Below, one piece after another: positions 44,350-46,194 of a stretch of 48,003 nucleotides of DNA (position 1 is its first letter; every line of letters starts with the position of its first letter). The stretch lies in the sequence record DRR723986_15922. One strand, 5' to 3'. Both the position numbers and the translations under genes were made by a program. The notes beneath the pieces were generated by a model that was not told the DNA's origin, ran no database searches, and worked only from the letters and a program-made list of their open reading frames with translations.

Positions 44350-44375
44350 AACCCGGCCTGGTGCCGGGTTTTTTT
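44350..44375 (+). terminator. Intrinsic terminator after the ABC operon
   Basis: aacccggc-ctggt-gccgggtt followed by T5. Confidence 0.87.
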
Positions 44376-44417
44376 ATGTCAAACTGAGAACACTTTATTC
44401 GGCTTACTTTGAAAACA

Positions 44418-45188
44418 ATGCAAACCCGCAAGCTGTCCGACAAATTTTCGATACTGGCCCACCAAGGCCAGCCAGAGGACACGCCATGGATGGAACTTGC
44501 ATTGCAGCAGGCGAGGCTTGCCGCACAGGCTGGCGAAGTACCGATTGGCGCAGTTGTGGTAATCGATGGCAAAGCCGTTGCCAGGGCACACAACGCACCA
44601 GTTTCATTGAACGATGCCTGCGCACACGCTGAAATTCAGGCCATTCGCCAAGCCTGTCAGGCGGTTGGCAATTACCGCCTGGGTGCACAAGCCACCCTAT
44701 ACGTCACACTACAACCCTGCCTCATGTGCATTGGTGCAATTTTGCATGCGCGGCTGGGTCGCGTGGTGGTGGGTTGTGCACAGTCACGCTACAACGGGGA
44801 TTTGAAACAGTCCTTGTCAGTGTTCGAGCAAGCGCAAGCCTGGCACCCCTGTGTTTTTGAAACTGATTGTATGGGACAGGAAAGTGAAGAATTGCTGGGC
44901 AATTTTTTCAAAGCGCGCCGCAAGCAGCGAGAAGAAACTGTTGCTGAATTGGGCAGTCTGATGCACCTGCCCAATGCCAACAAACAAACAATTGACGTAC
45001 TTGCGCAACTTGGCTTTCACACTCCGCATGATTTTTTACAGACAGGACTGCAGCAAGCCAGTGAAAGATTGGCTGAACATAGCCGCGTGTTGAAAGCAGG
45101 GCAGCACACCCAGCAGGCCGCCATTCTGGCCAGTTTGTGCGATTATTTCAACGGAGAACCCGTGCGTTCGTGGAAACAGTATCTGTAA
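44418..45188 (+). CDS. tadA: tRNA adenosine(34) deaminase TadA-like protein with C-terminal HhH (Cdd1/TfoX_C-like) extension
   Basis: GEVPIGAV, HAE, NYRL, TLYVTLQPCLMC, NFFKARR, then about 80 extra residues; adjacent to ldcA; start uncertain (44409 TTG, 44418 ATG or 44490 ATG). Confidence 0.85.
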   Translation: MQTRKLSDKFSILAHQGQPEDTPWMELALQQARLAAQAGEVPIGAVVVIDGKAVARAHNAPVSLNDACAHAEIQAIRQACQAVGNYRLGAQATLYVTLQPCLMCIGAILHARLGRVVVGCAQSRYNGDLKQSLSVFEQAQAWHPCVFETDCMGQESEELLGNFFKARRKQREETVAELGSLMHLPNANKQTIDVLAQLGFHTPHDFLQTGLQQASERLAEHSRVLKAGQHTQQAAILASLCDYFNGEPVRSWKQYL

Positions 45189-45213: not shown

Positions 45214-46194
45214 TTGAACAGCAAACCGCCCATCTCGACAAACCAGGCCCTGAACCAGCTGGTCATGTTTTCGCCCAGTGGCGCGCTGGTTGATGAAACC
45301 TTGCTCGACCGGGCCTGCAACCATTTGAGCAGTCAACATGGGTTCAATGTGATTGAAATGCCTGAATCACGCCGGCGCACACAGCGCTTTGCAGGTGACG
45401 ATGCCACGCGTATGGCCAGCATTGAAAATGCATTTGCCATGAATACCCCCAGCCTGCTGATGGCCACCCGAGGGGGTTACGGCTTAAGCCGATTGATGCC
45501 ACTGTTGAATTTTCCGGAACTTGCTGCATTGCTGAATGCAAATGCGCATGTGTTGTGCGGCCACAGCGACATTACGAGCCTGCAATTGGCGTTGCTGAAA
45601 GTTGGCGCACAACCTGCCACCTTGTTGCACGGGCCCATGGCTTGCTTCGATTTTGGAGCAGAGCAGGGTGCCGACCCACTCACGCTTGAACACTTTTTGC
45701 GTGCCGTAGAAAAACAGGCAGTACATATTGAATGGCCTGCTGAATGCATCGGACTGAGCGCAGAACAACAAAGCAGTGCAATTGAAGGTCCGGTATGGGG
45801 TGGCAACCTCACCTTGCTGTGCAGTCTTTTGGGAACCCCTTGGTTACCCAGTGTGTCTGGCGGCATCTTGGTGCTTGAAGATGTGAACGAGCCAACCTAC
45901 AAAATTGAGCGCATGCTGCTTCAGTTGCTGCACGCCGGCGTGTTGACCCAACAAAAGGCCATTGTGTTGGGTAATTTTTGTGAACCCAAACCTGGCGCAC
46001 ACGACAATGGCTACAACTTGCACAGCGCCGCTGAATTTGTTCAAAGCCAACTGACACATGTACCCGTATTGTTGAATTTTCCATTTGGTCACTGCACCCC
46101 CAAGGCTTGCTGGTTTCAGGGCGGGCAGGGCACCTTGACCATGACTGGCGGGCACAAGGAATTCAACGCACGCCTGGTTCAAACCGTTCGCTAG
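45214..46194 (+). CDS. ldcA: LD-carboxypeptidase (peptidase S66)
   Basis: RFAGDD..R, ATRGGYG, GHSDIT (Ser), GGNL, LEDVNE (Glu), FGH (His); TTG start. Confidence 0.9.
   Translation: MNSKPPISTNQALNQLVMFSPSGALVDETLLDRACNHLSSQHGFNVIEMPESRRRTQRFAGDDATRMASIENAFAMNTPSLLMATRGGYGLSRLMPLLNFPELAALLNANAHVLCGHSDITSLQLALLKVGAQPATLLHGPMACFDFGAEQGADPLTLEHFLRAVEKQAVHIEWPAECIGLSAEQQSSAIEGPVWGGNLTLLCSLLGTPWLPSVSGGILVLEDVNEPTYKIERMLLQLLHAGVLTQQKAIVLGNFCEPKPGAHDNGYNLHSAAEFVQSQLTHVPVLLNFPFGHCTPKACWFQGGQGTLTMTGGHKEFNARLVQTVR

Follow-up and report, generated by a model that had tools for sequence, protein, structure and literature searches.

A genus-wide rebuilt substrate loop in the probable tRNA-Arg(ACG) adenosine deaminase TadA of Limnobacter

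The window analyzed here, a stretch of 48,003 nucleotides from sequence record DRR723986_15922, was assigned to Limnobacter (order Burkholderiales) by the database names of the close relatives of one of its proteins, the TadA-type zinc deaminase encoded by tadA, which is the subject of this study. TadA is an essential enzyme, and few stretches of it are as conserved as the loop that contacts the RNA; in the window protein this loop is rebuilt and the catalytic residues are retained. The tadA open reading frame (ORF) occupies positions 44409..45188 of the plus strand and gives 259 amino acids when translated from TTG 44409. Homologues are mostly 256 amino acids long and start with a Met matching ATG 44418, which by this comparison is the likely start of tadA, giving 256 amino acids; residue numbering throughout nevertheless follows the 259-residue frame from TTG 44409. 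The protein consists of an N-terminal extension, a deaminase domain and an additional C-terminal domain (Table 1). Canonical TadAs are without the N-terminal extension of about 20 residues and begin near residue 20; in the AlphaFold 2 (AF2) model, the extension contains a strand at residues 13–17 (E13-17), the block having a predicted local distance difference test score (pLDDT) of 95.

Table 1 Features of the tadA locus, with positions in the window
Feature	Position	Strand	Basis and remarks
tadA coding sequence (likely start)	44418..45188	+	Stop codon 45186-45188; homologue starts, Pfam
N-terminal extension, residues 1-22, clade-specific	44409..44474	+	Conserved K-F; predicted beta-strand at residues 13-17
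TadA-fold zinc deaminase domain, residues 23-175	44475..44933	+	NCBIfam NF008113 match at residues 23-176; PDB TadAs; Foldseek
Catalytic H73-A74-E75 (CAC GCT GAA)	44625..44633	+	Codons read; zinc-ligand His, proton-shuttle Glu
Q102-P-C104-L-M-C107	44712..44729	+	Codons read; both zinc-ligand Cys intact, Gln for the Glu of 'EPC'
Remodelled strand-4/helix-4 substrate loop, G122-C-A-Q-S-R-Y-N-G-D-L-K-Q134	44772..44810	+	Alignments; one-residue insertion
Cys123 codon, at the EcTadA A106 position	44775..44777	+	HMMER alignment to 1z3a
Gln125 codon CAG, at the EcTadA D108 / SaTadA D104 position	44781..44783	+	Sequence and alignment to 1z3a
A144-W145-H146, in place of canonical L-N-H	44838..44846	+	Codons read; alignment
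C-terminal 84-residue all-helical domain, residues 176-259	44934..45185	+	Alignment A2, AF2, Cdd1 matches
ldcA (muramoyltetrapeptide LD-carboxypeptidase), downstream neighbour	45214..46194	+	Pfam Peptidase_S66 and S66C; NCBIfam PRK11253 1.6e-82
Terminator-like hairpin and T-run, between livM and tadA	44355..44380	+	Consensus match, not significant

The Pfam matches of the window protein were to MafB19-deam (1.7e-28) and to dCMP_cyt_deam_1, the zinc-binding region (5.3e-24), at residues 24-171. The best relatives of solved structure were all TadA, namely those of A. tumefaciens (2a8n, 1.9e-29), S. aureus (2b3j, 2.6e-28) and E. coli (1z3a, 8.4e-28), with the TadA matches in the PDB ranging from 1.9e-29 to 1e-24. 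The AF2 model, obtained with an alignment of 81 sequences (A1), had a mean pLDDT of 94.1 and a predicted template modelling score (pTM) of 0.80. In a Foldseek comparison with the RNA-bound SaTadA (2b3j_A), this model gave an E-value of 2.7e-15, a target-normalised template modelling score (TM) of 0.91 and a root-mean-square deviation of 2.2 over 153 columns; among the ranks listed, 1 to 26 were all TadA or TadA-derived, and the likeness extends to the helix after strand 5. The zinc site is that of TadA, with H-A-E and P103-C104-L-M-C107 invariant in A1, and the reading of the codons bears out a preliminary description of this DNA, which had called the catalytic HAE and PCxxC intact. According to the available text of a survey of deaminases (Iyer et al. 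2011, PMC3239186), the TadA/Tad2 clade is marked by an E before strand 1, an N in strand 2, a basic residue after strand 4, an E and an F in the first C-terminal helix, and the sequence 'EPClMC'. E43, N62, F166 and F167 are invariant in A1 and agree with these clade signatures, and the basic residue is represented by R127, which stands in the K110 column in 25/25 Limnobacter species. Two features depart from the pattern: the Glu of 'EPClMC' is Q102 in the window protein, and the acidic residue of the D108 type within a D-P-K-T-G turn is absent, Q125-S-R-Y-N being found there.

Compared with the bacterial TadAs of known structure (1z3a, 2b3j and 2a8n), the Limnobacter protein is alike in fold (TM 0.87-0.91 and 37-48% identity in the Foldseek alignments), in HAE and PCxxC, in the basic residue after strand 4, in the E and F-F of the C-terminal helix, and in occurring as a single copy together with tRNA-Arg(ACG). 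It differs in its loop, which is replaced and longer by one residue, in having Gln for the U33-binding Asp, Gln for the Glu of EPC and Trp for the Asn of LNH, and in its N- and C-terminal additions.

The assignment of Gln125 to the D108 position depends on the register of the alignment. In the HMMER alignment to E. coli TadA (1z3a), G-C-A-Q-S-R-Y is paired with G-A-R-D-A-K and a gap, so that Q125 corresponds to D108, C123 to A106 and R127 to K110, and Y128 is a one-residue insertion. The alignment to the Agrobacterium TadA (2a8n) is shifted by one, with S paired with D, and because of this slide the pairwise register is unsafe alone. It is fixed by transitional sequences: the deep-branching Limnobacter TadAs have G-x-x-D-S-R-[FY] against the canonical G-A-x-D-P-K-T-G, which places Gln125 at the D108 position. 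The canonical D-P-K-T-G-A-C-G-S loop has thus become Q-S-R-Y-N-G-D-L-K in the window, one residue longer. The preliminary description had set its register by eye; its placement of Gln at D108 holds, but the ungapped part after K110 was off by one. The loss of the K-T-G-A-A-G-S motif, which it had also reported, is seen in the alignment as the replaced loop, and the window protein does have LQPC for LEPC, DACAHAE for DPTAHAE and AWH for MNH.

The distribution of these changes was followed in a survey in which each genus or family around the nearest genome was represented by a single genome, with all TadA matches taken; the tallies cover 25 Limnobacter species genomes and 35 other Burkholderiales genera. 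At the D108 position, Gln was found in 20 of the Limnobacter species, Asp in 4 and Glu in 1, and the outgroup genera had Asp (34) or Glu (1), so that the family alignment, to which the preliminary description had left the rarity of this residue, gives Gln in 20/25 and 0/35, respectively. The residue before P-C is Q in 22 Limnobacter species and A, M and E in one each, against E in 35/35 outgroups. Within the Limnobacter loop, S126, R127 and Y/F128 are each conserved in 25/25 species, N129 in 21/25 and L132 in 23/25; the outgroup columns opposite S126, R127 and Y128 hold P in 31/35, K in 35/35 and T in 32/35, and the outgroup loop is D-P-K-T-G-A-[C/A]-G-S with nearly no exceptions. A similar picture was obtained at the AWH site (A144 in 25/25, W145 and H146 in 22/25 each), where the outgroups have L (33/35), N (34/35) and H (32/35). 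The A106 position is more variable, with Cys in 16, Ser in 5 and Ala in 4 Limnobacter species, and Ala in 29 and Thr in 6 outgroup genera. A large protein search, in which 121 proteins were examined, yielded 77 with the S-R loop and 44 others. Position 125 is Q in 64 of the former, E in 5, D in 5 and R, H and N in one each; in the latter it is E in 22, D in 21 and A in 1, this last being a fragment that diverges there. Since Asp or Glu occupies this position across the wider bacteria, Gln is a Limnobacter trait, and Gln at 108 together with the rebuilt loop is a genus-wide state, neither a one-off nor chance. As a separate observation, the TadA match at L089 (G049, C5:465100-465800) covers query residues 19-127 only, and its frame diverges directly after D-P-K; by its sequence, the tadA at this locus may have been disrupted or rearranged, the genome having a completeness rating of 100%.

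The same tallies bear on a doubtful, though possible, alternative, compensated neutral drift, according to which the accessory domain or the N-terminal extension would have taken over part of tRNA binding and Q125, Q102 and W145 would be non-adaptive. The spread of residues among the 77 rebuilt-loop proteins speaks for it, with Q, E, D, R, H and N at position 125 and Q, M, E, R, S and I at position 102. At the same time, S-R-[YF] is invariant in all 25 species, and Q is kept across crown species sharing ~52-100% identity, which indicates constraint and not drift.

Position 108 is known mainly from base-editor work. In SaTadA, D104, the equivalent of EcTadA D108, hydrogen-bonds the U33 2'-OH, and D108N was the first-round mutation of the adenine base editor (ABE), the one that gave the first DNA activity (PMC10586758); A106V and D108N are the core base-editor mutations (PMC9880001), and N108Q was engineered in ABE9 (bioRxiv 10.1101/2022.08.12.503700). 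The available portions of these three sources thus confirm what the preliminary description had said of the contact between D108 and a ribose 2'-OH and of the history of D108N, A106V and 108Q. However, it overstated the exceptionality of a non-acidic residue 108, since natural TadAs with Asn at this site exist (PMC10586758) and six of the 54 orthologues screened in PMC9880001 carry Asn108. A high natural incidence of D-to-N at 108 is also noted in the accessible part of a modelling preprint (bioRxiv 10.1101/2020.12.24.424366), in which the bond of Asn108 to the U33 2'-OH was stronger than that of the wild-type residue. An acidic 108 is a conserved contact and not a strict definition of TadA, natural Asn variants being published, and the altered loop is more striking as a whole than residue 108 alone.

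The Limnobacter enzyme resembles the engineered TadA* proteins (A106V/D108N, and N108Q in ABE9) in that the same two positions are changed, with an amide for the acid at 108 and a residue larger than Ala at 106; it differs from them in that its changes are natural and fixed in an essential gene, are C and Q and not V and N, and stand in a different loop. The natural Asn108 orthologues likewise have a non-acidic amide in a wild-type enzyme, as described in the excerpts of PMC9880001, PMC10586758 and bioRxiv 10.1101/2020.12.24.424366; those proteins have Asn, with no Gln mentioned in these excerpts, and the rest of their loop is apparently kept.

The genome-level results rest on the nearest genome, G001 (110 contigs), and its relatives. 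G001 shares 90% of the sampled 31-letter words of the window, and its TadA is 99.6-100% identical to that of the window. It contains one TadA-like gene; the sole other match to the TadA model, a much weaker one with 52 bits in a frame of 378 amino acids, presumably represents RibD, the riboflavin deaminase. With the window protein as query at E<=1e-10, a single match was obtained in each of 25 of the 26 genus genomes, the exception being 85% complete, and no second tadA was found, either in G001 with the family model or in 25 genus genomes searched with the protein at the same threshold. The tRNA genes found in G001 number 40; A34 occurs in one of them only, that for Arg-ACG, and Arg-CCG, Arg-UCU and Arg-CCU are present; no Arg-GCG tRNA was found among these 40 genes detected in the 110 contigs. 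The presence of tRNA-Arg(ACG), which the preliminary description had left to be checked, is thereby established for this genome. Across 35 ORFs of the window that do not overlap, 596 of the 814 Arg codons (73%) are CGT, CGC or CGA, CGC being the commonest (310), and with this tRNA set such codon usage means that inosine-34 decoding is needed.

The substrate itself is unchanged. The tRNA-Arg(ACG) of G001 is identical to an E. coli tRNA-Arg at 63 of 77 positions, with the same 7-nt anticodon loop and one compensated stem pair. It is present in full length and at >=95% identity in 24 of the 26 genus genomes, and G007, G008 and G026, which are the complete ones among the Asp-bearing species, have it at 99% identity. 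The substrate remained unchanged when the loop or residue 125 changed. Substrate co-evolution as the cause of the loop is therefore ruled out by the E. coli-identical anticodon loop and the 99% identity of the tRNA across D and Q species. Additional A34 tRNAs as a reason for wider specificity were also rejected, none being present among the 40 tRNA genes of G001, a set in which, with 110 contigs, a miss is possible. Assembled contigs of one transcriptome and three metatranscriptome runs had no T-to-C change, equivalent to A-to-G in the sense of the tRNA, listed at the A34 place (L026:1540) in the 26 of 122 pieces listed; such contigs drop minority variants and metatranscriptomes sum the tRNAs of many organisms, so this result is uninformative either way. 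In X12, the sole true transcriptome run, two long contigs break within the tRNA-Arg gene (L026 1498-1574), at 1551 and 1502, and one contig end consists of sequencing-adapter letters; these breaks may reflect short tRNA-derived fragments, a matter that is not interpretable from contigs.

The genomic position of the gene is shared as well. In the genus, ldcA lies directly downstream of tadA in 24 of 25 loci, and it lies downstream of a canonical tadA, in the same orientation, in two of five outgroup loci (L066 and L068). The caution in the preliminary description that this gene, lying beside ldcA, may be the housekeeping orthologue was justified, given the sole TadA-like gene, the shared tadA-ldcA locus and the kept tRNA-Arg(ACG). 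Upstream, the terminator-like element between livM and tadA was the only one found, against a mean of 1.7 in shuffled sequence; this hairpin and T-run suggest that tadA-ldcA may be transcribed separately from the liv genes.

The C-terminal domain, when folded alone with AF2 from an alignment of 23 sequences (A2), gave a pLDDT of 95.5. Two motifs are conserved in A2, L-P-N-[AV]-N-K and the terminal G-E-P-V-R-S-W-K-x-Y-L. A match to Cdd1 (PF11731) was obtained at E<=1 in 22 of the 23 members (best 5.8e-5), and a match to TfoX_C (PF04994) in 12 of the 23 (best 1.4e-4); for the window domain, both scores are under the Pfam gathering scores (14.8 against 25.5 bits for Cdd1 and 15.5 against 23.1 bits for TfoX_C). 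A search of 1.84 billion representative proteins with the A2 profile retrieved 22 proteins at E<=0.001, the best 10 being TadA fusions or fragments; among the hits were five proteins of ~100 residues (E 5.6e-5 to 8e-4), each of which is Cdd1 at E 1e-28 to 4e-33. Foldseek of the domain against the PDB returned nothing at E<=0.001, the top rows being Y-family polymerase thumbs (E ~1) and two small Listeria proteins. With VIA-align, run on 48,161 chains, the highest Z was 5.5, for the Rev1 thumb, tied with unrelated helical repeats and in the range common for helical models. As the structure matches are non-significant, a helix-hairpin-helix (HhH) reading rests on sequence profiles and no fold is assigned. 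The fused HhH domain of the preliminary description can therefore be kept in part: an HhH-like module exists, but the likeness is weak, to Cdd1 and TfoX_C under threshold.

The hairpin of an HhH motif is usually Gly-hydrophobic-Gly. In the Limnobacter domain it is N-x-N where HhH has G-x-G, with N14 invariant and N16 nearly so in A2. The domain is like Cdd1 and TfoX_C in its length of ~85 residues, its all-helical build, its L-P-x-h-x-K hairpin region and its C-terminal G-x-x-x-x-x-W; it differs in having Asn for the hairpin Gly, in being acidic, in its fusion to a deaminase and in scoring below the gathering thresholds. By these profiles, the domain is a divergent helix-hairpin-helix-type module of the Cdd1/TfoX_C kind, for which nucleic-acid binding is plausible.

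These features of the loop and the domain raise the possibility of a widened specificity, in which the rebuilt loop and the HhH-like domain would allow mRNA stem-loops or single-stranded DNA (ssDNA) to be deaminated as well, as A-to-I editing or a mutator activity. We consider this explanation unlikely. It would account for the alteration of both founding base-editor positions, A106 being C in 16/25 and D108 being Q in 20/25 species, for the neutralisation of two acidic residues near the pocket (E102Q and D125Q), and for the nature of the weak neighbours of the domain, which are DNA-binding HhH modules (Y-family polymerase thumbs, Cdd1 and TfoX_C). However, mutator activity is costly in an essential single-copy enzyme, the domain is acidic and has N-x-N and not G-x-G in its hairpin, its structure matches lie below significance (Foldseek E ~1, best Z 5.5), and the same domain is found on TadAs with fully canonical loops. 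Moreover, the natural Asn-108 orthologues in the base-editor screen still depended on an engineered A-to-V change, according to the available part of PMC9880001. A stronger form of the same idea, that the Limnobacter TadA is part-way on the directed-evolution path and acts in the cell on ssDNA or on RNA beyond tRNA-Arg, seems still less probable; the features that would suggest it are the larger residue 106, the amide at 108, the loss of two pocket charges, the aromatic residue in the loop and the tethered HhH-type module. In this connection, APOBECs carry their base-stacking Tyr in the strand-4/helix-4 loop, the loop in which the Limnobacter TadA has gained an aromatic residue. The relaxed or DNA-compatible specificity that the preliminary description had inferred is possible for this sequence but unsupported, and no observation requires it.

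The order in which the loop and the domain were acquired can be approached through three TadAs, P0095, P0128 and P0132, which bear the same C-terminal domain and have canonical loops: all three keep D-x-K/R-x-G and LEPC, and two of the three keep the Asn-His pair. A protein from a metagenome bin that clusters with P0132 bears the name TadA [Burkholderiales bacterium]. In a quick maximum-likelihood tree of 149 columns, in which the loop columns were kept, the rebuilt-loop proteins form one group on a long internal branch (support of 100 in the Shimodaira-Hasegawa-like approximate likelihood ratio test, SH-aLRT). In the free tree, the domain-bearing TadAs with canonical loops are scattered with weak support among the canonical TadAs and not beside the rebuilt clade; a forced clade of all domain-bearing TadAs, a group defined after the tree was seen, has a slightly better likelihood and is not rejected (approximately unbiased test, p-AU 0.573). 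That canonical-loop TadAs with the domain exist, so that the domain can precede the loop change, is a further point for compensated neutral drift. As a side observation, several of the nearest canonical TadAs (P0080, P0085, P0089, P0092, P0104, P0116 and P0120) have lengths of 392-454 residues, with an alpha/beta-hydrolase domain (PF00561) at the C terminus, by which TadA fusions seem common among these relatives.

An informative case is provided by genome G017 (65% complete), whose TadA (L065 1489-2040) combines the rebuilt S-R-F-N loop and A-W-H with LEPC and an Asp at 108, and lacks the C-terminal domain; ldcA starts three bases past its tadA stop. From its sequence, this TadA could be either an intermediate or a clean loss of the domain. 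Its new loop, kept without the domain, is a point against compensated drift. As four deep-branching species keep Asp, this residue probably persisted after the loop had been rebuilt. The simplest reading of these sequences would be that the domain came first, followed by loop replacement and then by the E-to-Q change at EPC and the D-to-Q change at 108 in the genus crown, with G017 having lost the domain.

The long branch of the rebuilt clade, apart from the sampled canonical TadAs with its SH-aLRT of 100, would also be expected if a foreign or paralogous deaminase of the CDA fold had displaced the original tadA and perhaps taken on another job, and the score of the protein below the NF008113 equivalog cut-off agrees with such a replacement. 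Nevertheless, it is extremely unlikely: the locus and orientation beside ldcA are those of canonical outgroup tadA, the gene is the sole TadA-like one, tRNA-Arg(ACG) being kept and heavily used, the best sequence and structure matches are all TadA, and intermediate sequences retain D108 and LEPC (L065).

Taken together, the gene is most probably the single essential tRNA-Arg(ACG) A34 deaminase TadA of Limnobacter, having diverged without leaving the ancestral tadA-ldcA locus. The sole TadA, the unchanged canonical substrate tRNA and the strongly conserved new loop point to conserved tRNA-Arg editing, and the presence of S126, R127, Y/F128 and A144 in 25/25 species each means that the new loop is under constraint. 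Several points weigh against this explanation. The best NCBIfam model, the TadA equivalog NF008113, scores the window protein at 128.3 bits against a cut-off of 150 bits (129.3 bits for the G001 homologue), a cut-off that is strict, being reached in only 6 of the 12 control genomes having a match, and the names that sources give to relatives vary between 'nucleoside deaminase' and 'tRNA(Arg) A34 adenosine deaminase TadA'. The G017 loop without a C-terminal domain indicates that the loop is not strictly domain-dependent, and the mildly acidic character of the domain (median net charge -2 and isoelectric point 5.76 in the 23 sequences) makes it a poor fit to a simple nucleic-acid clamp. In addition, several residues that touch RNA in the solved complex or belong to near-invariant motifs are altered (the P-K-T-G turn, D108, the Glu of E-P-C and the Asn of L-N-H), which makes an altered or wider substrate range possible, and the formation of inosine-34 in Limnobacter is itself something we infer from the sequences.

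According to this explanation of in-place divergence, the chemistry would be unchanged, with zinc held on H73, C104 and C107 and E75 serving as the proton shuttle, and A34 would be flipped into the zinc site and converted to inosine in the E. coli-identical anticodon loop. It is the hold on the RNA that would have changed, by replacement of the old loop with the conserved, one-residue-longer [Q/D/E]-S-R-[Y/F]-N-x-[D/N]-L, by the change of L-N-H to A-W-H and by loss of the Glu of E-P-C; to these would be added the 20-residue N-terminal extension and the 84-residue Cdd1/TfoX_C-like C-terminal domain. Asp108 would have been retained through the rebuilding of the loop and later changed to Gln, which became fixed in the genus crown. 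The Gln125 amide would be able to hydrogen-bond the U33 2'-OH, and R127 would act in the role of K110. The extra domain may lend binding or stability and so have allowed the old loop to be replaced, and the contacts of the old K-T-G-A-x-G-S turn may be replaced by the aromatic residue 128, Trp145, the N-terminal strand or the C-terminal domain. Finally, the two negative charges lost near the substrate (E102Q and D125Q) may raise the general affinity for nucleic acids, the one point at which the preliminary description's idea of relaxed specificity may have some truth.

A TadA-type core that uses added domains for its tRNA has been described in eukaryotic ADAT2/ADAT3, judging by the available part of bioRxiv 10.1101/2022.06.16.496122, and is comparable by analogy only: those enzymes are heterodimeric and have many tRNA substrates, and their added domains are unrelated to the Limnobacter domain. 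The literature search revealed no publication on a Limnobacter TadA by title or abstract, with the qualification that supplementary orthologue tables might hold Gln-108 sequences, and no fusion of TadA with a helix-hairpin-helix domain among the matches listed; in the accessible text of the deaminase survey, the sole helix-hairpin-helix fusion mentioned is with RadC and not TadA (PMC3239186).

The sub-threshold TadA score and the naming as 'nucleoside deaminase' have a practical consequence, because the genus may be misread as lacking tadA. For base-editor engineering, the protein offers a wild-type Cys106, Gln108 and a new loop, a part of sequence space that was apparently unsampled by the orthologue screen, as far as the available part of PMC9880001 indicates. 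If activity on ssDNA or on a wider range of RNA were true of it, no wild-type housekeeping TadA of bacteria would have been shown to have such activity before, and the protein would be a new base-editor scaffold. For the biology of the family, the loop is identical in type in 35/35 neighbouring genera, and a whole genus has swapped it for another loop of equal conservation with the substrate tRNA unchanged, which would mean that there is a second way of holding the anticodon loop. The Limnobacter TadA is thus a natural experiment on which RNA contacts are truly needed.

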